Assembly: GCA_001001375.1 (NCBI GenBank)
Contig: LCNU01000015.1
Location: forward strand, 1 to 60,290
Length of the DNA stretch: 60,290 bases
Source of the DNA: Candidatus Amesbacteria bacterium GW2011_GWC1_47_15
Lineage (GTDB): Bacteria; Patescibacteriota; Microgenomatia; CAZETR01; Amesbacteraceae
Direction: 5' to 3'
Part shown: in pieces, positions 20,380 through 55,297 of the stretch
How the letters are laid out: each line of letters starts with the position of its first letter
Position numbering within the stretch: the stretch's first letter is position 1
Notes under the pieces: model-generated
Database searches by the model: none
What the model was told of the DNA's origin: nothing
The model's input: only the letters and a program-made list of their open reading frames with translations
Program-made: the position numbers and the translations under genes

Positions 20380-22371
20380 TTATGGAGACTCGGGCGTTGC
20401 CGACAGGGTGGCGATTTCGGACATAGAGGCCAGGGCATCTGCAAAATCCGGCTTGAGTGCCAGAGCTTTTTCCAGATACCTCCGGGCTGTCGGATAATCT
20501 TCCTTATACCGGGCTACCAATGCCTGCATCTGGGGGATGCGGGGGTCTGTAGGGGAGACACGGGCGGCCTGTTCCAAAGTCGCTTCTACTTGCGGATAGT
20601 AGGAAGTATCATATACGGCAAGCAGTAGGAGGCTGCGGCCGCGGGATTTGAGATAGTTTGGGTGATACGGGCTGGCGGCTACCGCTTGTCGAGAAAGGGA
20701 TTGGGATAGGTCAGCCAGCTGCCTGGCGGTTTCCGGTTTTGAATCATAGGAAAGTAAAGACATATACGCGGCAGCGGTAGAAAATTCCGAGGCTATAGGC
20801 GGATCTTTATGGTTCAGGCTATACGCGGAGGCTAAATCATCATACGCTTTAACTATATAGGCAAGATCCTGGGTGAGAATGAAAGCCCGGAAATTATTCT
20901 GGCCGGAGGCGTATTTAATATCCGCTGTCCAATAACGGAGGATGGAATATGACAGGTAGAGAGCGGGAAGAAAGAGAAGCATGATGGAGAAGAGGCGGGA
21001 GTTTGAAGTAGTGGCGGGCAGTGCGGAGTGGGTAGCGGGATTGGTAGTGAGAGTGAGGGCGAGGGCCGGGAAGAGGAAAAGGAAGATTTGGGTAATGACT
21101 ACCGAGAAGCCCCAGTAGTTGGTGACAGAGAGGGAGAGCCACCCCGCGCACAGCGCGGGAATGACCAATTTCCAATGACCAATTTCCAATGTATTATCCA
21201 ATTTCACAATTTTTAATTGCTTAATGAAAACCCAGGCCATTGCAAGAAGCAGGAGAATGTACGAGCCGAGGCCGATTAATCCCGTAGTGGCCAGGAAATT
21301 CAGGAATTCATTGTGGGCTTTATTGTATAAAAGTTCCCATTCCGAGGTGTAATTGTGTTCAACCGGACGGTGGTTGTAATAAGCCATGGCAAAAGTCTCG
21401 GGGCCGGCGCCGAGCCAGAAATTTTTATCGGAAGCGCGCCAAATATCAATTGCGCCTTTCCAGACAATTTGCCGGATAGCTCCGGATTCGGTGCCGCCGG
21501 ATTCCAGAGCGGGTTGGACCGGGGCAGAAGCTGAAGGCAGGGCCGGTTGGCGACTGAAGACGATATCCTGGACGGGATTACGGATAGAAATAGCAATAAT
21601 TATGAACACAAGATTTAAAGATAACAGGAATTTAAGATGGGTTTGGAAATGGCGAAGGAGTATATAACCCCAGAAAACGGCGGAGGAGACGCCGAAGGCA
21701 AGGAGGCCGGAGCGGGATTTGGTAAATAAAAGAGTGATAAAGAGCAGAAGAGTGAAAGAGAATAAAAGAATTGATTTTGCACTTTGTATTTTGGACCCGG
21801 AACTTAATATCATGCTGATGGGAATAAAAATCAAAGCTACCAGATAGGCCGCGAGCCAATTTGGCTGTCCGAGAGTGGAAAAAACGCGGTGGGCAACATC
21901 CTGCACCCACATCGGGTCATCGATGCCGAAGTGCTCAAGAAAACCCCACCCGGCGACTACGCCGGCCAGCCCCACTGACCAACTCAGAAGATTCAATGAA
22001 GATTTCCTGTCCAGATTGGAAACAGCTGCCCAGTAAAGGAGAGCATAAGACAAAAGGGAGGCAAGACCGCCGTTGAAGCGGGAGTAATAACCCAATAGAG
22101 AAGTGCGCGGGTCGATGGAAAAAAAGTAACTAAGTGATTGAGAGATTAAGAAAATTAAGACGGGTAGATCGAGGGCGGTGCGACGGAAAATAAGGCGGTT
22201 TTCCAGGATCATGCGGGAAATCCAGAATGCAGCGATCAGGACGGCTAATAGATAGACAACGATCATTTTGTTAAATTCAAACAGTTCGGAGGTGAAGGGG
22301 AGGAAGATCAGGGGGACGAGGATTAAGAGGAGGATGAAGGAGATCTCAATTGCCTTTTTGGGCCAAGACAT
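20380..22371 (-). CDS. O-antigen ligase/Wzy-like polytopic membrane protein with C-terminal TPR repeats
   Basis: 663-aa ORF with more than 10 TM helices. It has the Wzy_C signature KAHNEFLNFLATTGLIGLG and a TPR-like C-terminus. Confidence 0.85.
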   Translation of the reverse strand: MSWPKKAIEISFILLLILVPLIFLPFTSELFEFNKMIVVYLLAVLIAAFWISRMILENRLIFRRTALDLPVLIFLISQSLSYFFSIDPRTSLLGYYSRFNGGLASLLSYALLYWAAVSNLDRKSSLNLLSWSVGLAGVVAGWGFLEHFGIDDPMWVQDVAHRVFSTLGQPNWLAAYLVALIFIPISMILSSGSKIQSAKSILLFSFTLLLFITLLFTKSRSGLLAFGVSSAVFWGYILLRHFQTHLKFLLSLNLVFIIIAISIRNPVQDIVFSRQPALPSASAPVQPALESGGTESGAIRQIVWKGAIDIWRASDKNFWLGAGPETFAMAYYNHRPVEHNYTSEWELLYNKAHNEFLNFLATTGLIGLGSYILLLLAMAWVFIKQLKIVKLDNTLEIGHWKLVIPALCAGWLSLSVTNYWGFSVVITQIFLFLFPALALTLTTNPATHSALPATTSNSRLFSIMLLFLPALYLSYSILRYWTADIKYASGQNNFRAFILTQDLAYIVKAYDDLASAYSLNHKDPPIASEFSTAAAYMSLLSYDSKPETARQLADLSQSLSRQAVAASPYHPNYLKSRGRSLLLLAVYDTSYYPQVEATLEQAARVSPTDPRIPQMQALVARYKEDYPTARRYLEKALALKPDFADALASMSEIATLSATPESP
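21161..21188. repeat. tandem 14-mer ATGACCAATTTCCA x2 (two CCAAT heptads each) inside the Wzy-like ORF
   Basis: Exact duplication at 21161-21174 and 21175-21188. CAAT-periodic sequence continues to about 21220. Confidence 0.9.
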
Positions 22372-26489: not shown

Positions 26490-28165
26490 TTCGAGGCAAA
26501 TTCAAACCCGGTGTATCTTTCGGTGACTTTGTAGTGACTGATGTGATGAGCAGGAGAAAACTGCCGGATGACAGTACCCCGCGGGATTTCCGCCGGGGAT
26601 GGATCATTTGGGTATGGGTGGTGGTGCTTTTCGGGATTTTGGGGGTGAAATTGGCCACACTGCAGCTGTTTTATGGCGGCCGGTACAGGATACTGGCAGA
26701 TGAAAACCGGATCAAACAAATAAAAATACCTGCGCTGAGAGGTCAGATTACAGACCGAAATGGCAACGTCCTTGCCAGAAGCGATATATCCGAAAAATAT
26801 GATGAAATACTCAAACTTACTTTAGAAAAATCCACACGAGGTTACCCGGCGGGAGAAGCTGCTGCGGCAGCCGTCGGCTACCTGGGACAAATCAAAGAGG
26901 ATGAAGTGGGGTTATTAAAGGAATTGGATAAATATCTTCCCGGAGACTGGATCGGACGGGACGGAGTGGAGGCGGTGTATGAGGAAGATTTGAGGGGAGA
27001 GGACGGAGGCCGGCTGGTGGAGGTAGATAATGGTGGAAAAGTGGTCAGGGAGATGGGCCGGAAGGAACCGAAAGTCGGGAAGGACTTGAAACTCAGCCTG
27101 GACTTGTCCCTGCAAAGAACGGCACTGGAAGCCATGGAAGGAAAGAAGGGAGCAGTAGTGGCAAGCGATCCCCGGACCGGGGAAATACTGACCCTGATAA
27201 GCTCACCCAGCTTTGATCCAAATTCTTTCGTCAATGCTCAATATCAAGTGTCCAATGCTCAATATCTTATAGATCCGAATTTGCCCCTGTTTAACAGGGC
27301 GATCGGGGCGGTTTACCCACCGGGATCTACGTTTAAGATGGTAACGATGGCGGCAGCCATTTCAGAAGGCAAAGTAAACCCCGGGTTTACCTACACTGAT
27401 ACAGGGATAATCAGCGTAGCCGGTTTTAAATACAGCAATTGGTTGTTTACAAAAGGGGGCGGCCGCGAAGGCACAATCGGTTTTGCCCGGGCGCTTACCC
27501 GTTCTACAGATACGTTTTTTTACAAGATCGGTGAGATGACTACACCTGAATTGCTGGCGAAATGGGCAAAAAACTTGGGGCTGGGAGAAAAGACAGGGAT
27601 AGATTTGCCAGGTGAGGTTGCGGGTCTGATACCGGATCCCGAGTGGAAGGAAAAAGCCAAAGGAGAAAAGTGGTTTTTGGGAAATACATTTCACATGGCA
27701 ATAGGGCAGGGGGATGTGTTGACTACTCCGATACAGATCAACCAGATGACAAATATTCTTGCAACCGGGGGAAAGAAGTGCACACCTCACCTGAAGTATG
27801 ACCAATTGAATAAATGTGGAAATGTTCAAATTTCCGAAGAGGCACTAAAACTCATCAAATTAGGGATGGAAGGGGCTTGCGCACCGGGAGGGACGGCTTT
27901 TCCGCTATTCGGATTTGATGTAAAAACCGCCTGCAAGACGGGGACAGCGGAGTATGTAGCGGAAAACGGCAAGATGCGTACCCACGGCTGGCTGACGGCC
28001 TATGCTCCTCTACAGGATCCGGTGATTTCTATTACCGTGGTAGTAGAAGGAGGAGGCGAAGGTTCAAATGTGGCGGCACCAGTCGTCCGCAAAATGCTTG
28101 CCAGGTATTTTGACGTGACCGATACATACAATTACGCAGCTATTCCGCAGGAAATAGGAGAATAA
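26486..28165 (+). CDS. mrdA: penicillin-binding protein 2 (elongasome transpeptidase)
   Basis: 559-aa ORF with an N-terminal TM helix. It has RGQITDRNGNVLA, the STFK motif (PGSTFKMVT) and the KTGTA motif. Confidence 0.9.
   Translation: MIRGKFKPGVSFGDFVVTDVMSRRKLPDDSTPRDFRRGWIIWVWVVVLFGILGVKLATLQLFYGGRYRILADENRIKQIKIPALRGQITDRNGNVLARSDISEKYDEILKLTLEKSTRGYPAGEAAAAAVGYLGQIKEDEVGLLKELDKYLPGDWIGRDGVEAVYEEDLRGEDGGRLVEVDNGGKVVREMGRKEPKVGKDLKLSLDLSLQRTALEAMEGKKGAVVASDPRTGEILTLISSPSFDPNSFVNAQYQVSNAQYLIDPNLPLFNRAIGAVYPPGSTFKMVTMAAAISEGKVNPGFTYTDTGIISVAGFKYSNWLFTKGGGREGTIGFARALTRSTDTFFYKIGEMTTPELLAKWAKNLGLGEKTGIDLPGEVAGLIPDPEWKEKAKGEKWFLGNTFHMAIGQGDVLTTPIQINQMTNILATGGKKCTPHLKYDQLNKCGNVQISEEALKLIKLGMEGACAPGGTAFPLFGFDVKTACKTGTAEYVAENGKMRTHGWLTAYAPLQDPVISITVVVEGGGEGSNVAAPVVRKMLARYFDVTDTYNYAAIPQEIGE
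27232..27266. repeat. CAATGCTCAATATC repeated 21 nt apart inside mrdA
   Basis: Exact 14-mers at 27232-27245 and 27253-27266, encoding NAQYQVS-NAQYLI. Confidence 0.85.
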
Positions 28166-28731: not shown

Positions 28732-30834
28732 ATGAGATTTATGAATTTGATCGTCGTTGAATCGCCTACCAAGGCCAGAACTCTCTCCCGATTTTTGGAG
28801 GGAGATTTTGCAGTGGAAGCCACTTACGGCCATGTCCAGGATCTGCCTCAGAAGAAGCTGGGAGTAATTATTGAGCAGGAGAGTGGAAGAGCAGGAGAAT
28901 ATAGGTTCGAGTTGCAATATGAGCAGTTGGAGAAACAGCAAAAACGTATGGATGAGATTAAAAAGCTGGCAGGAAAGACCGACAAGATATATCTGGCAAC
29001 GGATCCCGATCGGGAAGGTGAAGCGATAGCTTATCACGTGTCCCAGATATTAAAGAACGGGAAAAAACAACACGAGTTTGTACGCATTGTGTTTCATGAA
29101 ATTACCAAAAAGGCAATTCAGGAAGCCCTGGAGCATCCGCAAAAAGTAGACCGGCAGCTGGTGGAGGCACAGCAGGCCCGCAGAGTCCTGGATAGGCTGG
29201 TCGGGTACAAACTTTCACCACTCTTGTGGCGGAAAGTGCGCAAAGGCTTGTCTGCGGGAAGGGTCCAGAGCGTGGCCGTCCGGCTGGTAGTGGAACGGGA
29301 AAGGGAAATATTGGCTTTTAAACCTGAGGAATACTGGCAGATATTCGCAGAAGTGGAAAAAATGAATATACAAAAATTTCAGGTACAACTTACGGAGAGA
29401 GAAGGCGAGAAAATTAAAGTCGGCAACGGGGTAGAAGCGGAAAAAATTAAGCTCGATTTGGAAAAAGCCGCCTACTGTGTGGCAGGGGTGTCCAAGCGGG
29501 AGTTTAAAAAATCCCCCCCTGCGCCTTTTACAACATCCACGCTGCAGCAGGCAGGGGCAAACAAATTGGGCTGGAGCGCCAAAAGAACTATGCAGGTAGC
29601 CCAGTCCCTGTATGAAGAGGGGCATATTACCTATCACCGGACGGATTCTACAAATCTGGCAGTGGAAGCGGTAGCACAGGCCAGAGATTTCATTGCCGCA
29701 AAATACGGAAAAGAATTCGTACCGGCAACACCCCGGATATACCAGACAAAGAGCAAAGTAGCGCAGGAGGCGCATGAGGCCATACGGCCTACAGAAGTTA
29801 ATGTTCAATATTCAACCCAGCCAACCGGCGGGCAAGCTTCCAATGTCCAATGGGGGAAGGACGAGGGGAGACTGTATGAACTGATCTGGAAAAGGTTTTT
29901 GGCCTGCCAGATGGCGGATACGGCAGGTGAGGAAACTAAAGTGACAGTGAGGGCAACCGGAAGAGACGGTGAATACCAGCTGGAAGTTAAAGGTCAGGTA
30001 GTTAAGTTTGAAGGGTGGAAGAGACTCTACGAGTCAAGCACTAAATCAGAATTACTAAGCTCCAACGGTGAGGAGGACAAGGTGGAGGAGGTAATGTTGC
30101 CGGAATTGACAGAAGGGGAGAAGCTGAACCTGCTTTCCGTGTTGACCGAACAAAAATTTACCCAGCCTCCGGCCAGATTCAACGATGCCTCTCTTATAAA
30201 AGCCCTGGAAGAAAAGGGGATCGGACGGCCCAGCACCTATGCGCCTACTTTGACTACAATCCAGGATCGGCAGTATGTGGAAAAGACGAATATCGGAGAT
30301 TCCCGGCAAAAAAGATTTTCCCCCACAGCGCTGGGAATGGCGGTAAATGATTTTTTGACTGCAAATTTTCCGGAAATTGTGGACTTTGAGTTTACTGCCA
30401 GGATGGAGGATGAGCTGGATAATATCGCTGCCGGGGAAAGACAATGGCAACCTGTACTGTCCGCTTTTTACGGGCCGTTTGAAAAAAACCTCGAAAATGT
30501 GAGCGAGACGGCACAGCGGGTACATATAAAGGCGGATGAGACAGGAAATCCCTGTCCCAAATGCGGCGAAGGGAGGGAGATCGTAAGAATCGGGAAATTC
30601 GGCAGATTTCTAGCCTGCAGCCGCTACCCGGAATGCGACTACAAGAGGAACTATGTCAAAAAAGCCGGGGTGTTGTGCCCGAAATGCGGTGGGGATGTGA
30701 TCATGCGCCGGACGAAAACGGGAAAGAATTTCTTTGGCTGCTCAAATTACCCCAAGTGCGATTTTGCCAGCTGGACCAAACCTAAAGCTGCCGCCACTAC
30801 TGAAGTTACGCAGGCACCGCGCGAAACTACCTAA
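28732..30834 (+). CDS. topA: DNA topoisomerase I
   Basis: 700-aa ORF. The Toprim sequences are VVESPTKA and DPDREGEAIAYH. The active-site region is ITYHRTDS, and there are two C-terminal C4 zinc ribbons. Confidence 0.95.
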   Translation: MRFMNLIVVESPTKARTLSRFLEGDFAVEATYGHVQDLPQKKLGVIIEQESGRAGEYRFELQYEQLEKQQKRMDEIKKLAGKTDKIYLATDPDREGEAIAYHVSQILKNGKKQHEFVRIVFHEITKKAIQEALEHPQKVDRQLVEAQQARRVLDRLVGYKLSPLLWRKVRKGLSAGRVQSVAVRLVVEREREILAFKPEEYWQIFAEVEKMNIQKFQVQLTEREGEKIKVGNGVEAEKIKLDLEKAAYCVAGVSKREFKKSPPAPFTTSTLQQAGANKLGWSAKRTMQVAQSLYEEGHITYHRTDSTNLAVEAVAQARDFIAAKYGKEFVPATPRIYQTKSKVAQEAHEAIRPTEVNVQYSTQPTGGQASNVQWGKDEGRLYELIWKRFLACQMADTAGEETKVTVRATGRDGEYQLEVKGQVVKFEGWKRLYESSTKSELLSSNGEEDKVEEVMLPELTEGEKLNLLSVLTEQKFTQPPARFNDASLIKALEEKGIGRPSTYAPTLTTIQDRQYVEKTNIGDSRQKRFSPTALGMAVNDFLTANFPEIVDFEFTARMEDELDNIAAGERQWQPVLSAFYGPFEKNLENVSETAQRVHIKADETGNPCPKCGEGREIVRIGKFGRFLACSRYPECDYKRNYVKKAGVLCPKCGGDVIMRRTKTGKNFFGCSNYPKCDFASWTKPKAAATTEVTQAPRETT
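29804..29851. repeat. CAAT-heptad element inside topA (TTCAATATTCAA ... CAATGTCCAAT)
   Basis: The 12-mer at 29804-29815 and the 11-mer at 29841-29851 recur contiguously in glyA (37204-37223). The 11-mer also recurs in rseP (43242-43252). Confidence 0.85.
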
Positions 30835-36233: not shown

Positions 36234-37367
36234 TTGGGGATGGCGAAGCAAAAAAGGGACAAAACATTTGAATTGATCGAAAAAGAGACACAGCGGCAAA
36301 ACGATACTTTGCAAATGATTCCCAGCGAAAATTACGCTTCAGCGGCCGTACGTGAAGCGATGGGAAGTGTATTTACGAATAAATATGCCGAGGGGTATCC
36401 GGGAAAGAGATATTACCAGGGAAACGAAGTAGTGGACGAATTGGAGAATCTTTGCCGTGAGAGTGGGAAGCCAGCATTACCGGTGAGTACCGCAAGACTG
36501 TGCATTATTTTCTGGACCAAAATGGGGAAGTAGATTGGGAGCAGCTGTACCGGCTGGCGCGGGAGCACAAACCCAAACTAATTTGGTCGGGAGGGACGGG
36601 TTACACCAGGATTTTCCAGTGGGAAAAATATGCCCGGATAGCAGATGAAATCGGGGCGTATTTTGTGGCGGACATTTCCCACATCGGCGGATTGGTTGCC
36701 GGAGGAGTTCATCCGTCACCTGTGCCGTTTGCGCATGTGAGAAAAGGGGAAGAAAAAAGATAGCGAGTTGGAGAGCAAGATAGACAAGGCTGTTTTTCCC
36801 GGAGTACAAGGAGGGCCGCATATGGAAAACATCGCCGCTTTGACCATAGCACTCACAGAAGCCAGCACTCCCGGGTTTGGAACATACGCCAAACAAATAG
36901 TGATAAATGCAAAAGCCCTGGCGACGTATTTATCATTTAACAATTATCATTTGATCGGCGGAGGGACGGAAAACCATATGATCTGGATTGATCTGACGAA
37001 TAAGGGGATTGACGGATGGAGCGCGGCGTGGGCTTTGGAATACGCCGGGATAATTGCCAACAGACAGACAGTGCCGGGGGAGAAAAGATCCCCATATTAT
37101 CCTTCCGGGCTGCGTCTGGGGACGCCGGCAGTAACGACCAGGGGAATGAAAGAGGGGGAAATGCTGTTGATAGCGCAGTGGATAAATAACGTTATATCCA
37201 ATCTTCAATATTCAATGTCCAATAAATATAAAGATATCGGGAGCGATGATAAAAAGAAGGATCAGGTGGCCAGAAAACATTTTAAGCTGGAGATGAAAGA
37301 GGATAAGAAACTGCTTGAGACCGCGGGGGAAGTAAAGGAATTGTGCCGGAAGTTTCCTGTAAAATAG
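36234..37367 (+). pseudogene. glyA: serine hydroxymethyltransferase broken into three frames with two internal segments missing
   Basis: Track ORFs 36234..36533, 36500..36763 and 36768..37367 carry N-terminal, middle and C-terminal SHMT sequence (IPSENYAS...YPGKRYYQG; HKPKLIWSGGTGY...ADISHIGGLVAGGVHPSP; KIDKAVFPGVQGGPHM...). The segment after ENLCRE is absent (~55 aa), and so is the PLP-lysine block (TTTTHKTLRGPRGG). Confidence 0.85.
37197..37223. repeat. CAAT-heptad element inside the glyA C-terminal fragment
   Basis: TCCAATC TTCAATA TTCAATG TCCAAT. It contains the same 12-mer and 11-mer found in topA. Confidence 0.85.
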
Positions 37368-38427: not shown

Positions 38428-39210
38428 ATGCGCAGTATTTCATTGCAGGAACTTCTTGAGGCCGGGTGCCATTTTGGGCATCAGGTGAGGCGTTGGAATC
38501 CGAAGATGAAGAAATACGTTTTCGGAGAAAGAGATCACGTGCATATTTTTGACCTGGCGAAGACTAAAGAAGGGCTGGAAGACGCCTACAAATTTTTAAG
38601 GGACATCAGCAGTGAGGGGAAAAAAGTATTGTTTGTAGGGACAAAAAGGCAAGCCGCGGCCACAGTAAAGGCAGCAGCTAATAAAACAGGAATGCCCTTT
38701 ATTACCAAACGCTGGATGGGAGGACTCTTAACTAATTTTTCACAAATTTCCAAAAGTATCCGCCGGCTCTCCGACCTTAAGTCCCAGCGTGAGACCGGTG
38801 AGCTGAAAAAGTATACCAAAAAGGAGCAGCTGCTGATTGACCGGGAGATTGAAAAGCTGGAAAAGTTTTTCGGGGGAGTTGCTGAAATGGACAAATTGCC
38901 GGACGCAGTATTTATCGTGGACACACACAGAGAAGATGTGGCGGTCCGCGAGGCCGTAAGAATGGGCGTACCGGTGGTGGGAATGGTAGACAGCAACGGA
39001 GATCCCGAAATAGTTGACTATGTGATACCCGTAAACGATGACGCAGTGAAGTCTATAGAACTGGTAGTGAATCTGATAACGGATGCTGTGGAGGAGGGAA
39101 TAAAAAGAGGTAAAGAGGCTGAGGCGAAAAGCGATGGAACGGAAGTTCAGCCTAAGCTTAGGACCAAGACCAAGCCTAAGACCAAGAAAGTGGAAAAAAA
39201 TGAAGTTTAA
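38428..39210 (+). CDS. rpsB: 30S ribosomal protein S2
   Basis: LLEAGCHFGHQVRRWNPKM...IFDL...VLFVGTKRQA...RWMGGLLTN. Confidence 0.95.
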   Translation: MRSISLQELLEAGCHFGHQVRRWNPKMKKYVFGERDHVHIFDLAKTKEGLEDAYKFLRDISSEGKKVLFVGTKRQAAATVKAAANKTGMPFITKRWMGGLLTNFSQISKSIRRLSDLKSQRETGELKKYTKKEQLLIDREIEKLEKFFGGVAEMDKLPDAVFIVDTHREDVAVREAVRMGVPVVGMVDSNGDPEIVDYVIPVNDDAVKSIELVVNLITDAVEEGIKRGKEAEAKSDGTEVQPKLRTKTKPKTKKVEKNEV

Positions 39211-39652
39211 TATTGAGGATATTAAAAAGTTACGCGAAGAAACGGGCGCCGGAGTGGCGGACTGCCGGGAAGCGCTGGAAGAAACGGCAGGCGACGTAAA
39301 AAAGGCGAAGGAACTGATCCGCAAAAAAGGCATCGAAAAAGCAGCCAGGAAGTCCGATAGGGAGGTCAAAGCGGGGATGGTATTTTCTTATATCCACCAT
39401 ACAGGGCGGGTAGGGGCGATGGCAGGGCTGGCCTGTGAGACGGATTTTGTGGCTAAGACGGAAGATTTTCAAAAACTGGGACGGGAGCTGGCTTTGCACA
39501 TTGCCGCCAGCCGTCCGAAATCAGTTGAGGAGCTGATGAAACAGGAATATGTCCGTGACCCGGGTATCAGAATAGAGGAGCTGGTAAAAGAAGTCATCGG
39601 CAAGTTGGGGGAGAATATCCAGGTGACGGATTTTAAGGTGGTGGAGGTATAG
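39200..39652 (+). CDS. tsf: elongation factor Ts (short form, 150 aa)
   Basis: IKKLREETGAGVADCREAL (UBA-like N-terminus) and CETDFVAKTEDF. The start is set at MKFNIEDIK, overlapping the end of rpsB. Confidence 0.9.
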   Translation: MKFNIEDIKKLREETGAGVADCREALEETAGDVKKAKELIRKKGIEKAARKSDREVKAGMVFSYIHHTGRVGAMAGLACETDFVAKTEDFQKLGRELALHIAASRPKSVEELMKQEYVRDPGIRIEELVKEVIGKLGENIQVTDFKVVEV

Positions 39653-42599: not shown

Positions 42600-43671
42600 A
42601 TGCCGACGTGGCTGATTTTTATCATTTTATTGTCTATTCTGGTACTGGTCCACGAACTGGGCCATTTCCTGGCCGCCAGAATATTGGGGATTAAGGTAGA
42701 AGAGTTTGCACTCGGGCTGCCTTTTACCAAACCGCTGGTAAAAATACAAAGGGGAGAGATCCAGTACGCAGTATACCCTGTTTTTTTCGGCGGTTTCGTA
42801 AAGCTTTACGGAGAAGATAAGGAACCGGAGGGGGTCAAGGCGGATAAAAAAGATATCGGCCGTGATTTCTGGAGCAGGGGAAAAAAACAACGCATTGTGG
42901 TGATAGCGGCCGGAGTAGTAATGAATGTGGTATTGGCGGTGGGGGGATTTGTTTTGCTTTATTCCGTAGTGGGGGTGCCGCGTAAAACCATACAAAAAGT
43001 AACTGTAGCCGGGGTGGAAATGGATTCTCCTGCACAGGAGGCTGGGATAACAGAAAACGACCGTGAATCTGACTTTGGAAAGAGGCAGCGGCACCCCACT
43101 ATTTGAGGGAATTGTGGAAGGAGAGATTCAAAGGCAAATATTAAGCGTTGTCCCCCGTAAGAATCCTCCGGAGGGAAAAGGGGCACTGGGAGTGATGATT
43201 TCAGCCTATCCGTATCTGACTACAGAGAAATGTTCAATGACCAATGTCCAATGTTCTATAGGCGCATTGGAGCAAGGATTTAAAAGTACAAAAATTTGGA
43301 TAGATCGTGTATTTGAAGGCTTGAGAGGCATAGGCGGGAGCCTGGTACGGGGGAAAGCGCCGGAAGGGGTATCCGGACCTTTCGGTATTTATCAGCTGAC
43401 CGACACGGTAGCGGCTTACGGCTGGCTGCCGATACTGGAGCTTCTGGCTATTCTGTCCATCAACCTGGCGGTTTTTAATATCCTGCCAATACCGGCACTG
43501 GATGGGGGAAGAATGTTTTTTGTCGGACTGGAGTGGCTGATGCAAAAGAGAATTCCTGCAGAAACAGAGCAAAAAATAAATTCCTGGGGAATGGCGTTTC
43601 TGATTACACTGATGGTACTGGTATCCCTTCAGGATGTGATCCGGCTAGGGGTAATGGAAAGAATTTTTTAA
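42600..43671 (+). pseudogene. rseP: RseP-type M50 site-2 protease split by a frameshift inside the PDZ domain
   Basis: Track ORFs 42600..43106 (HELGHFLAA...SPAQEAGITENDR) and 43063..43671 (VNLTLERGSG...NILPIPALDGGRMFF). The junction near 43060-43064 lacks the middle of the PDZ domain and changes frame. Confidence 0.8.
43231..43257. repeat. CAAT-heptad element inside rseP
   Basis: TGTTCAA TGACCAA TGTCCAA TGTTCT. It contains CAATGTCCAAT (43242-43252). Confidence 0.85.
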
Positions 43672-52287: not shown

Positions 52288-52341
52288 GACATTTAAGCAT
52301 TTATCATTTAATTCAACTATTTAATTACTAATTAATTATTT
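52288..52341. repeat. intergenic CATTTA-type ~7-nt periodic array
   Basis: GACATTTAAGCATTTATCATTTAATTCAACTATTTAATTACTAATTAATTATTT fills the whole spacer up to the ATG at 52342. Confidence 0.7.
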
Positions 52342-53133: not shown

Positions 53134-54575
53134 GAATCTACAATTCTTTAACCCGGCAGATTGAGGAATTTGAACCGCTTGCGGAGGGGAAAGCGGGGAT
53201 GTATACATGCGGGCCTACTGTATACGATTACGCGCATATCGGCCATGCCCGCAAATACGTATATGACGATCTTTTGCGGCGTGTGCTTTCGGCCAACGGA
53301 CTGGAAGTGATGCATGTGCAAAACGTAACGGATGTGGGGCATCTGGTATCCGACGCGGATGAAGGGGAGGACAAACTGGAGAAAGGCGCCAGGGAAATGA
53401 AACGGACCGTCTGGGAGGCAGCTGAGTTTTTTACGCGTGATTTTTATAAGATGGCCGATTCCATGAATATCCTGCGGCCTACCATTACCGCCCGGGCTAC
53501 AGATCATATTAAAGAACAGACAGACCTGATACAAAAGCTGGTGCAAAAAGGGTTTGCTTATGAGACGCCGGAGGCAGTGTATTTTGATGTGGGAAAATTT
53601 CCCCGGTACGGTCTGCTTTTCGGACAAAAACTGGCGGATAAACAGGTAGCAGTGCGGGAGGAAGTGAAAACCGGGGAGCACAAAAGACACCCTGCGGATT
53701 TTGCCCTGTGGTTTAAGCGGGTGGGGCGGTTTGCCGACCACCAGATGCATTGGGAATCACCCTGGGGAGACGGATTCCCCGGTTGGCATATCGAGTGTTC
53801 GGCTATGTCTATGAAATATCTGGGTGAGTCATTTGATATACATACCGGAGGAGAAGACCATCTGCCGGTGCACCACCCCAACGAAATTGCCCAAGCGGAA
53901 GCAGCAACAGGTAAGCTTCTGGCAAGATATTGGGTACACCACGCGTTTTTACTCATAGACGGACAGAAAATGTCTAAAAGTCTGGGTAATTATTACCGAG
54001 TGGAAGATGTGGCCGAGAAGGGATTTGACCCCATGGCCCTGAGGTATCTGTACCTGACTGCGCATTACCGCAGCCCCCAAAATTTTACCTGGTCTGCTTT
54101 GGCGGCGGCGCAGACAGCTTATGACAAACTTAACAAGTTTGTCAAAGATTCAGGATCAAACCCGCCTGCCGGACGGGCAGGGATTCAGGATATAAGAATT
54201 CAGTTATCAAAGGAGAAGGCGAAAAAGCTGGACCAATACAGACTGCGGTTTGAAGAAGCCGTAAACAATGACCTGCAGTTTCCCCGGGCTTTGGCGGTCA
54301 TGTGGGAAATGATGAAAAGCAATATACCGGATTACGACAAGGCGGATGCATTGCGGGACTGGGATGAAATTTTGGGTTTGAGACTGGGGGCATTGAAGAG
54401 TGAGGAGGTGCAAATCCCTGAACAAATAAGGGAGATGTCCCAGAAGCGGGAGATACTGCGCCGGGACGGGAAATTCGTGGAAGCGGATGAATTGAGGGTA
54501 GAGATGGAGAAGTTAGGATGGGGGATTGAAGACGCTGCCAAGGGATCCAGGATAGTCAAGTTAAAGCATATTTAA
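53130..54575 (+). CDS. cysS: cysteine--tRNA ligase
   Basis: 481-aa ORF with a GTG start. It has HIGHAR (HIGH), the Zn-site ECS...H motifs and KMSKSLGN. Confidence 0.95.
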   Translation: MRIYNSLTRQIEEFEPLAEGKAGMYTCGPTVYDYAHIGHARKYVYDDLLRRVLSANGLEVMHVQNVTDVGHLVSDADEGEDKLEKGAREMKRTVWEAAEFFTRDFYKMADSMNILRPTITARATDHIKEQTDLIQKLVQKGFAYETPEAVYFDVGKFPRYGLLFGQKLADKQVAVREEVKTGEHKRHPADFALWFKRVGRFADHQMHWESPWGDGFPGWHIECSAMSMKYLGESFDIHTGGEDHLPVHHPNEIAQAEAATGKLLARYWVHHAFLLIDGQKMSKSLGNYYRVEDVAEKGFDPMALRYLYLTAHYRSPQNFTWSALAAAQTAYDKLNKFVKDSGSNPPAGRAGIQDIRIQLSKEKAKKLDQYRLRFEEAVNNDLQFPRALAVMWEMMKSNIPDYDKADALRDWDEILGLRLGALKSEEVQIPEQIREMSQKREILRRDGKFVEADELRVEMEKLGWGIEDAAKGSRIVKLKHI

Positions 54576-54622
54576 CAATTTAACATTTATCATTTAACAT
54601 TTAGTTTAGACATTTAATATTT
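54576..54622. repeat. intergenic ACATTTA heptad array
   Basis: TAACAATTTAACATTTATCATTTAACATTTAGTTTAGACATTTAATATTT fills the spacer up to the ATG at 54623. Confidence 0.75.
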
Positions 54623-55297
54623 ATGAATTGGCAAAAGAAGTTGGCTTGGGGAATTTTAATTATTGATTTATTGGCGGTGAATGCAGGAGTGGGACACCTT
54701 GTATATAAATCCCAAGCACCAAGCACCAATAATCAAATAATTACCAATAACCAGGAGGAGAAGGGGTGCGGAGAGGAGTGCCTGGCCGCCGTCAGGGAGG
54801 CAGTTGACAATTATCAATTGTCAATCGTCAATTTAAGTGCAACCATCACCGGTACAGTAATTCCGACGGTGAAACCGACTGCCAAGCCGGCGGCCCAACA
54901 GGCAGTGACGGCGACAAATCCAAAGATCAGGAGCGTACAGTATGTGACTATACCCGGAAACGGCAGCACGGTGACTAACGGCTGGACGGTACTTAGCGGG
55001 ACGGAATTTTATTTTGACTTGGGTGATTATCCCGGTTTGAAAGAGATATATTTTGAAGCGAACTTGAAACTTTTTAACGGCAATGGGATAGCCTATGCGC
55101 GGTTGTACGATTCGACTCACGGGATCGGGGTGCAGGGGAGCGAAGTGCAGACTAGTTCCCAGGCAAACACGGTGGTAGAATCCGGAAAATTGTCTTTCTG
55201 GGGAGGAAAGAACCTAATAAAAGTGCAGTCCAGGAGTCTGACGGCGGATACGGCAGTTTACAATTCGGGAAGGCTGAGGATCGTGATGGAGAATTGA
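54623..55297 (+). CDS. membrane-anchored secreted protein, unknown function
   Basis: 224-aa ORF with an N-terminal TM helix and a beta-rich C-terminal domain. Confidence 0.6.
   Translation: MNWQKKLAWGILIIDLLAVNAGVGHLVYKSQAPSTNNQIITNNQEEKGCGEECLAAVREAVDNYQLSIVNLSATITGTVIPTVKPTAKPAAQQAVTATNPKIRSVQYVTIPGNGSTVTNGWTVLSGTEFYFDLGDYPGLKEIYFEANLKLFNGNGIAYARLYDSTHGIGVQGSEVQTSSQANTVVESGKLSFWGGKNLIKVQSRSLTADTAVYNSGRLRIVMEN
54713..54836. repeat. two CAA(T)-heptad runs inside the 54623 ORF
   Basis: The first run is CCAAGCA CCAAGCA CCAATAA TCAAATA (54713-54740). The second is GACAATT ATCAATT GTCAATC GTCAATT (54806-54833). Confidence 0.8.

Follow-up and report, generated by a model that had tools for sequence, protein, structure and literature searches.

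CAAT heptamer arrays in Candidatus Amesbacteria: a probable lineage-wide family of degenerate repeats, re-copied in place and filtered by translation

Why should unrelated conserved genes of one small genome contain the same 11- and 12-nucleotide words, in frame and built on a CAAT core that recurs every seven nucleotides? The question is raised by a contig of 60,290 nucleotides (LCNU01000015.1, hereafter the window) from Candidatus Amesbacteria bacterium GW2011_GWC1_47_15, an ultra-small groundwater bacterium of the class Microgenomatia in the candidate phyla radiation (CPR). An initial annotation of this DNA had described a dispersed element, shared among others by topA, glyA and rseP, that inserts or spreads within essential genes. 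We consider it probable (about 0.6) that the supposed element represents lineage-wide arrays of degenerate NNNCAAT heptamers, similar to the short tandemly repeated repetitive (STRR) sequences of cyanobacteria, which are re-copied in place, oriented with replication and, where they lie in genes, filtered by translation.

Heptamer arrays in the window and in the genome

The 11-mer CAATGTCCAAT lies at 29841-29851 in topA, 37213-37223 in glyA and 43242-43252 in rseP, on the + strand in all three, and the 12-mer TTCAATATTCAA at 29804-29815 in topA and 37204-37215 in glyA; both positions and copy numbers were exactly those annotated initially. Dinucleotide-preserving shuffles gave an expectation of 0.06 copies for the 11-mer, with three copies reached in 0 of 100 shuffles, and of 0.03 for the 12-mer, which confirmed that the 11-mer excess is far above chance. 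The two words had been described as split by 25 nt in topA and as contiguous in glyA. The former was correct, and the 25-nt spacer has no match elsewhere; in glyA the words do not merely adjoin, but overlap and form one array (37196-37223).

The host genes of the window arrays were confirmed by Pfam. The topA gene (28732-30834, +), encoding Toprim, Topoisom_bac and zinc ribbon domains, contains block A at 29797-29815 (+; GTTAAT GTTCAAT ATTCAA), which encodes VNVQYS at the start of a hypervariable loop after HEAIRPT, and block B at 29838-29851 (+; TTCCAAT GTCCAAT), which encodes SNVQW; most orthologues have a loop shorter by 8-10 residues. The glyA array (+; ATCCAAT CTTCAAT ATTCAAT GTCCAAT) encodes SNLQYSMSN directly after the serine hydroxymethyltransferase (SHMT) domain. 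In rseP, which encodes an M50 protease, the array at 43225-43259 (+; GAGAAAT GTTCAAT GACCAAT GTCCAAT GTTCTAT) encodes KCSMTNVQCS, a Cys-x6-Cys loop. The further period-7 runs that had been described were also present: in mrdA a 21-nt duplication of three heptamers (27230-27266, +; NAQYQVS/NAQYLID) in a hypervariable loop after SSPSFDPN, in the Wzy-like gene (20380-22371, - strand) an array at 21156-21220 on the + strand, antisense to the gene, and in the open reading frame (ORF) 54623-55297 two tracts on the + strand. The first of the latter (54712-54750) consists of CCAAGCA units followed by ACCAATA-type units, and the second (54798-54832) of TGACAAT TATCAAT TGTCAAT CGTCAAT. The peptides quoted in the annotation had been read correctly.

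The window corresponds to contig C15 in an assembly of 914 kb (labelled G000; 52 contigs, 88 % complete), in which a simple self-trained caller predicted 906 genes and 87 % coding sequence. Strict runs of at least three CAAT at period 7 numbered 22 on both strands together, compared with 0-3 at each of the other periods from 4 to 12, and the claimed 7-nt periodicity therefore holds genome-wide. When tetramer cores were ranked at period 7, CAAT came first and the other high scorers overlapped it; period-7 arrays were also reported by Tandem Repeats Finder. Counting as an array at least three exact units, we found 29 arrays, of which 13 were intergenic, 12 sense and four antisense. They had been described as intragenic, but they are enriched about 3.4-fold in non-coding DNA, which makes up approximately 13 % of the genome, and an intergenic array often fills the whole spacer between consecutive genes. 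The arrays have 3-8 units and are imperfect repeats; the longest, of eight units, lies in the inter-domain linker of a prepilin peptidase. Their flanks had nothing in common.

The unit vocabulary is small. Among 101 units, GTTCAAT (22), ATTCAAT (18), TTTCAAT (10) and GTCCAAT (9) accounted for 58 %, and two units drawn at random are identical with a probability of 0.106. Because with such a vocabulary any two arrays easily have an 11- or 12-mer in common, the words common to unrelated genes are not evidence of copying between them. A generic strict scan (four units, at most 12 % mismatch) returned only seven arrays at period 7, compared with five at period 4 and four at period 6; the signal is a conserved CAAT core at 7-nt spacing rather than near-perfect repetition. 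Read forward, NNTCAAT units are stop-free in all frames and give a cyclic SNVQYSM-type peptide, and in the reverse reading they contain TGA. The antisense arrays mostly have CCAAT-type units, in which ATTGG contains no TGA, or occupy a frame that escapes the stop; the array in the Wzy-like gene is of this kind (GACCAAT TTCCAAT), with no TGA in the antisense reading.

A second, AT-rich unit family of CATTTAA/ATTTAAC type was seen in the window at 54570-54623 and 52290-52338. These arrays, absent from the initial annotation, fill the leaders of ORF 54623 and ORF 52342, immediately 5' of the start codons; the one at 54570-54623 is an intergenic ATTTAAC-type array of 7.7 copies on the + strand. 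A hexamer tract, (GACCAA)x4.3, lies at 39162-39187 within ORF 39134-39652 and has a CCAA core in common with heptamer units.

The host genes had been described as essential, but glyA and rseP cannot simply be regarded as intact essential genes here. In this assembly glyA (36234-37367, +) is in three frames, with orthologue residues 107-127 and 219-238 missing, and rseP (42600-43671, +) in two, with residues 153-178 missing, i.e. 20-26 residues per break. The second glyA gap presumably removes the lysine that binds pyridoxal phosphate. The breaks lie away from the arrays, and the two genes are either decaying or affected by assembly errors.

Orthologous loops and strand polarity

Forty related genomes of 0.6-1.8 Mb were compared with G000, giving a set of 41. 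A search for the motif in relatives had been proposed with the annotation; (CAATNNN)x3CAAT was found in 24 of the 41 genomes, with up to 33 matches, and a single genome excepted, its reversed control was close to zero. The spectrum of units was specific to the genome: GTTCAAT-type units prevailed in G003, TTTCAAT and TTACAAT in G012 and G001, and GGACAAT and ACGCAAT in G015. The positions of the arrays were not conserved between relatives, except within protein loops.

Alignments of TopA, GlyA, RseP and MrdA orthologues agreed with an in-frame position in variable loops of unrelated genes. The TopA arrays lie between HEAIRPT and RD..LYELIW, in a loop that proved hypervariable throughout the 30 orthologues; in other genomes the same loop contains (GTTCAAA)x4 (G038), (CAAT)x4 (G001) or GGAGCTA units (G023). 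At the site of the GlyA array the nearest orthologues have a loop of equal length without heptamers, and CAAT heptamers recur there in genus g12 (G011 and G024) and in G025, so that CAAT arrays occupy this site in three lineages. In approximately 22 genomes of the family the RseP loop, K-C-SMTNVQ-C in G000, has equal length; in four it is absent, leaving the protein nine residues shorter. The DNA of the loop consists of CAATGTY units in G000, G022 and G017, of a perfect (AGTGCTC)x4 in G011, of AGTGCYA in G002 and G019, of RGTRTTC in G024 and of TAATGTY in G007. The MrdA loop after SSPSFDPN behaves in the same way, with CAGT-type and AGTACTA-type tracts in relatives.

Judged from these alignments, the RseP and MrdA tracts, which lie at the same loop across most of the family, are as old as the family and have been rewritten into genome-specific units, in RseP with the length also conserved. 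Old tracts re-homogenised at the same loop, under a length constraint in RseP, do not fit recent insertion, and the equal loop lengths in GlyA and RseP differ from the presence or absence with added length that a mobile element would leave. The question of insertion or replacement, which had been left to orthologue alignment, is answered for GlyA by replacement. The same peptide in distant orthologues, which would have indicated ordinary conserved sequence, was encountered in part: RseP orthologues of two other genera have nearly the same peptide (KCSM.NVQC), whereas elsewhere the peptides differ at the same loop. A scan of metagenomes with TopA gave a best match of 61 % identity and no strain-level or species-level variants; the matches included groundwater metagenomes.

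The arrays have a strict polarity. With G-richness assessed over the surrounding 10 kb, CAAT was on the G-rich strand in 29 of 29 arrays, including the four antisense ones and several whose neighbouring genes run the opposite way. In relatives with strong skew the same held for 34 of 35 (G003) and 12 of 12 arrays (G012), i.e. 46 of 47 together. This is opposite to what base composition would give: on their CAAT strand the arrays contain more C than G (180 C and 83 G), single CAAT is less frequent on the G-rich strand than on the other (1826 compared with 2392), and when Markov models of order 0-4 were trained on the genome in G-rich orientation, they favoured the opposite orientation for most arrays. 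Coding bases are divided 53:47 between the strands, and counter-oriented genes still lie at a skew of +0.10. The polarity of the arrays is not an effect of base composition, and in this they are like polar motifs such as the FtsK-orienting polar sequences (KOPS), Chi and the architecture imparting sequences (AIMS).

In the closed genome of a relative (G027, 785,860 bp) there are two clean replichores and the skew switches at dnaA, from which it follows that in this class the leading strand is the G-rich one. The 23 period-7 arrays of G027 are mostly arms of PF05635 genes (see below) and had no clear polarity. GC skew is very large in the class, being about +0.2 across the window (1-60290) and up to 0.44 in G003. 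On contig C7 of G000 positive skew is seen to either side of dnaA, and the origin may therefore not adjoin dnaA there.

PF05635 genes, a composite core and the rival explanations

PF05635 genes, small genes for an Avd-like protein known as the 23S rRNA intervening-sequence protein, occur in the relatives in up to 13 copies per genome, in genomes of less than 1 Mb. Most of 30 inspected loci (those of relatives are L208-L236) were bracketed by heptamer arrays, mostly inverted and with a different unit for each copy; gene and brackets together resemble a selfish hairpin element. The window contains no PF05635 gene, and the full form is seen in relatives. Over the 41 genomes the number of CAAT arrays correlated with PF05635 copy number (Spearman 0.55, p 0.0002, uncorrected for relatedness). 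This correlation suggests that CAAT arrays and PF05635 heptamer arms probably share a generating process, in which the PF05635 gene may have a causal role. In G000 the only PF05635 gene (C14:15386-15727) adjoins one composite CAAT-type array.

In the composite form a conserved 23-nt core, CCTTCGACTTYGCTCAGGACNNG, interrupts the heptamers, as it does in five arrays of G000. The core was present in 27 of the 41 genomes, and in relatives it was outside heptamer arrays at 16 of 20 sites. As the exact 20-mer CCTTCGACTTYGCTCAGGAC the core was found in more than 120 species (loci L237-L316), spread over many phyla, including Proteobacteria, Acidobacteriota, Chloroflexota, Planctomycetota, Cyanobacteria, Bacteroidota and CPR bacteria; AGGC or GAACG often comes next, and an inverted partner is often nearby. 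Every copy in G000 (C3:51884-51903, C14:14212-14231, C14:15342-15361 and C33:7312-7331, with a variant on C45 near 3050) lies within CAAT arrays. We know of no name for this element. A search of six loci with arrays and core against Rfam, with E up to 1, gave matches at chance level only. The core is treated here as an element separate from the heptamer arrays. It was also considered whether the 25-nt spacer of topA is a diverged core, and this was rejected, as the two have only the gapped 9-mer CGGCAAGCT in common, which has 13 copies in the genome.

Two direct composite elements (heptamers, core, heptamers) lie 1130 nt apart at C14:14212-15361 (locus L032), where they flank a gene for a PD-(D/E)XK (Cas4-like) nuclease; the PF05635 gene adjoins, and the whole could be a cassette. 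Three genes for proteins of 233-248 amino acids with an HFHLL motif, similar to Y1 transposases of the type associated with repetitive extragenic palindromes (REP-associated tyrosine transposases, RAYT), were found at C3:11332-12033, C17:10420-11166 and C22:4001-4711. The palindrome AAGGAGTATCCTTTT lies on either side of the gene on C3 and also occurs on C14; genes and palindrome (see also L037:435-465) may constitute a REP/RAYT-type system. A link of the arrays with HUH/Y1 transposases was rejected, since none of the three genes adjoins heptamer arrays. Templated writing by a reverse transcriptase was likewise rejected, as no RVT_1 domain was found in G000 or in five array-rich relatives.

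The explanation that we prefer runs as follows. Arrays would arise and then be repeatedly re-homogenised in place through re-copying of neighbouring 7-nt units, for which slippage, template switching or short-tract conversion could be the route. Because every array has one polarity relative to GC skew, the process is likely to be coupled to the direction of replication. Translation then filters what remains in genes, where the arrays are found in stop-free orientations and frames, with length changes that keep the frame and in loops that tolerate any sequence. The surviving tracts encode periodic seven-residue peptides of SNVQYSM type, at least one of which has been kept, as the Cys-x6-Cys loop of RseP.

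Several observations weigh against this explanation. Rewritten units at equal loop length sit awkwardly with simple slippage. Polarity was mixed in G001 (10 of 15 arrays, with weak skew) and in G028 (6 of 10), and in G015 the ACGCAAT arrays consistently have the opposite polarity while the GGACAAT family follows the rule; the CAAT arrays of G027 are too few to show a flip at origin and terminus. As to PF05635, the relatedness of the genomes was left in the correlation, the arms are built of units other than CAAT, and the gene in G000 has arrays on one side only.

A serious rival, although we hold it to be unlikely, is that the arrays are a functional, strand-polar signal, to which a protein of replication, segregation, recombination or mRNA handling would bind at successive sites spaced by 7 nt. 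They would then resemble KOPS or Chi in their polarity, or sites for cold-shock proteins on CCAAT/ATTGG heptamers, and the copies within genes would be tolerated by-products. In its favour are the strict polarity opposed to base composition, the persistence of the CAAT core in many genomes in which the remaining bases of the unit vary, and the enrichment of arrays in intergenic DNA, exactly at gene junctions; binding of heptamer repeats by cold-shock proteins has been proposed (PMC4679880). Yet genomes differ in their unit, as do even the families within G015, array positions shift among relatives everywhere except inside loops, and arbitrary protein loops are occupied. A reader protein was not identified; no gene with a cold-shock domain was found in G000, where at 88 % completeness absence is unproven.

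Doubtful at present is a replication-coupled, strand-specific process that writes as well as rewrites 7-nt units between genes and in loops, and that may be tied to PF05635 hairpin elements.

The remaining alternatives are poorly supported. It is improbable that a small mobile element, either of the miniature inverted-repeat transposable element (MITE) or Rickettsia palindromic element type or derived from PF05635 arms, inserts in frame and leaves CAAT arrays. The identical words in unrelated genes first suggested it, and the five composite copies in G000 and the heptamer arms of PF05635 genes, whose copy number follows that of the arrays, could be taken in the same sense, as could the polarity, since single-strand DNA transposition of the IS200/IS605 type typically shows strand polarity. 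However, the words are accounted for by the unit vocabulary, and neither termini, inverted ends nor target duplications were seen. The GlyA array is a replaced loop and not an insertion, the RseP and MrdA tracts are family-old, in RseP with equal length, the Y1-transposase-like genes lie apart from the arrays, the core in relatives lies mostly outside heptamers and the topA spacer does not match it. For the copies in the window, an element that inserts or spreads, as initially annotated, is already largely refuted.

Phase variation, in which gain or loss of 7-nt units in contingency tracts would switch genes on and off, is very improbable. A 7-nt unit does shift the reading frame, a surface-polymer (Wzy-like) gene is among the hosts, and heptamer tracts behave so in some pathogens (PMC4692102). 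The arrays, however, are short and imperfect, their hosts are housekeeping genes, the RseP tract has a single length in about 22 genomes, and the frame breaks of glyA and rseP lie elsewhere in these genes. That chance, codon usage or base composition made the arrays, with periodic peptides that are ordinary conserved sequence, is hardly credible. The nearly identical RseP peptide in two other genera speaks for it, but it is already refuted by the shuffle and period controls; against it are also the intergenic arrays built of the same units, the perfect DNA repeats beneath different peptides at the same loop, and a composition that predicts the opposite strand.

Known heptamer repeats and implications

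STRR heptanucleotide repeats of heterocystous cyanobacteria were reportedly described by Mazel and co-workers in 1990, and we know of no accepted origin or function for heptamer repeats, whether in cyanobacteria since then or, later, in Xanthomonas and large sulfur bacteria. GACCAAT, a unit of the window, is the complement of STRR2. The CAAT arrays are a variant of STRR-like heptamer repeats, and the likeness to STRR that had been pointed out initially is well founded. The accompanying statement that no known feature class explains them has to be withdrawn, as heptameric simple-sequence repeats have been described in Nostoc and Xanthomonas (PMC4692102) and, as TAACTGA direct repeats, in marine Beggiatoaceae, Microcystis and some Bacteroidetes (MacGregor 2015, PMC4679880). 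Among long simple-sequence repeats of prokaryotes heptamers are the most abundant class, as PMC4679880 summarises the work of Mrazek, Guo and Shah (2007). Our literature searches found no report of heptamer repeats in CPR bacteria, of in-frame loop tracts or of replication polarity, and searches by the core sequence and by STRR unit sequences gave only noise.

STRR, including the Nostoc unit GGGGA(C/T)T (Rehm et al. 2015, PMC4692102), and CAAT arrays are both short, degenerate 7-nt tandem arrays in many dispersed copies. Both are over-represented in non-coding DNA near gene ends and between co-directional genes, and both have about four preferred units. On the other strand the Nostoc unit reads CCC-CA(G/A)T and has the same NNN-CA(A/G)T form as the CAAT arrays. 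There are also clear differences. The host is a 0.9-Mb CPR bacterium and not a cyanobacterium, most units differ from STRR1-3, with GACCAAT as the only match, and the CAAT units are not G-rich, so that no quadruplex can form. Moreover, more than half of the CAAT arrays lie inside genes, in frame, and a strict replication polarity against composition is undescribed for STRR.

The TAACTGA repeats (PMC4679880) likewise form intergenic arrays, of 2-6 units, and follow the same orientation logic relative to ORFs: one orientation contains stops and the other is translatable, as LSVISYQ there and as SNVQYSM here. They consist, however, of one fixed unit, are almost only intergenic and have a proposed role in translation control, whereas CAAT arrays have a degenerate vocabulary, many copies within genes and a polarity set by replication, not transcription. 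On the reverse strand TAACTGA reads TAT-CAGT. The form NNN-CA(A/G)T is thus common to the Nostoc unit, TAACTGA and the CAAT units, a weak but curious regularity, as about 1 in 9 random heptamers would match by chance and the unit of Xanthomonas deviates from it. The long simple-sequence repeats of Mrazek et al. (2007) have the same 7-nt excess, and slippage promoted by interaction with the replicative polymerase has been proposed as their origin; in the summary of that work in PMC4679880, non-triplet units are rare in coding sequence, and in-frame loop tracts or turnover at orthologous sites do not appear.

Two other systems bear comparison. PF05635 or S23p "intervening-sequence protein" hairpin elements (Avd-like four-helix bundles) are bracketed by heptamers in the relatives, as described above, but the arms have other units, and the CAAT arrays are solitary and polar instead of being paired into hairpins. 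Rickettsia palindromic elements are, reportedly (Ogata and co-workers, 2000), selfish in-frame insertions in protein genes. They too are repeated DNA tolerated in frame in conserved genes, at surface-exposed places. They differ in being palindromes of 100-150 bp with defined ends and a single insertion, whereas the CAAT arrays are 20-55 nt of tandem heptamers without ends, old at their site and rewritten in place.

For the annotation of such genomes the arrays carry a warning, as identical oligomers in unrelated genes are no proof of mobile DNA. Heptamers lie in frame in housekeeping proteins and have been rewritten at the same loops, so that protein sequence in very small genomes is shaped by them. 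The orientation of the arrays with the fork and against base composition points to a strand-specific process or reader and not to neutral slippage, and their number follows that of a small, multi-copy four-helix-bundle gene, which has heptamer arrays around it as well. Should the doubtful suggestion of a process that writes heptamers hold true, STRR, TAACTGA and CAAT heptamers would be products of one enzymatic mechanism, and that mechanism would be a natural force of loop diversification in reduced CPR genomes.

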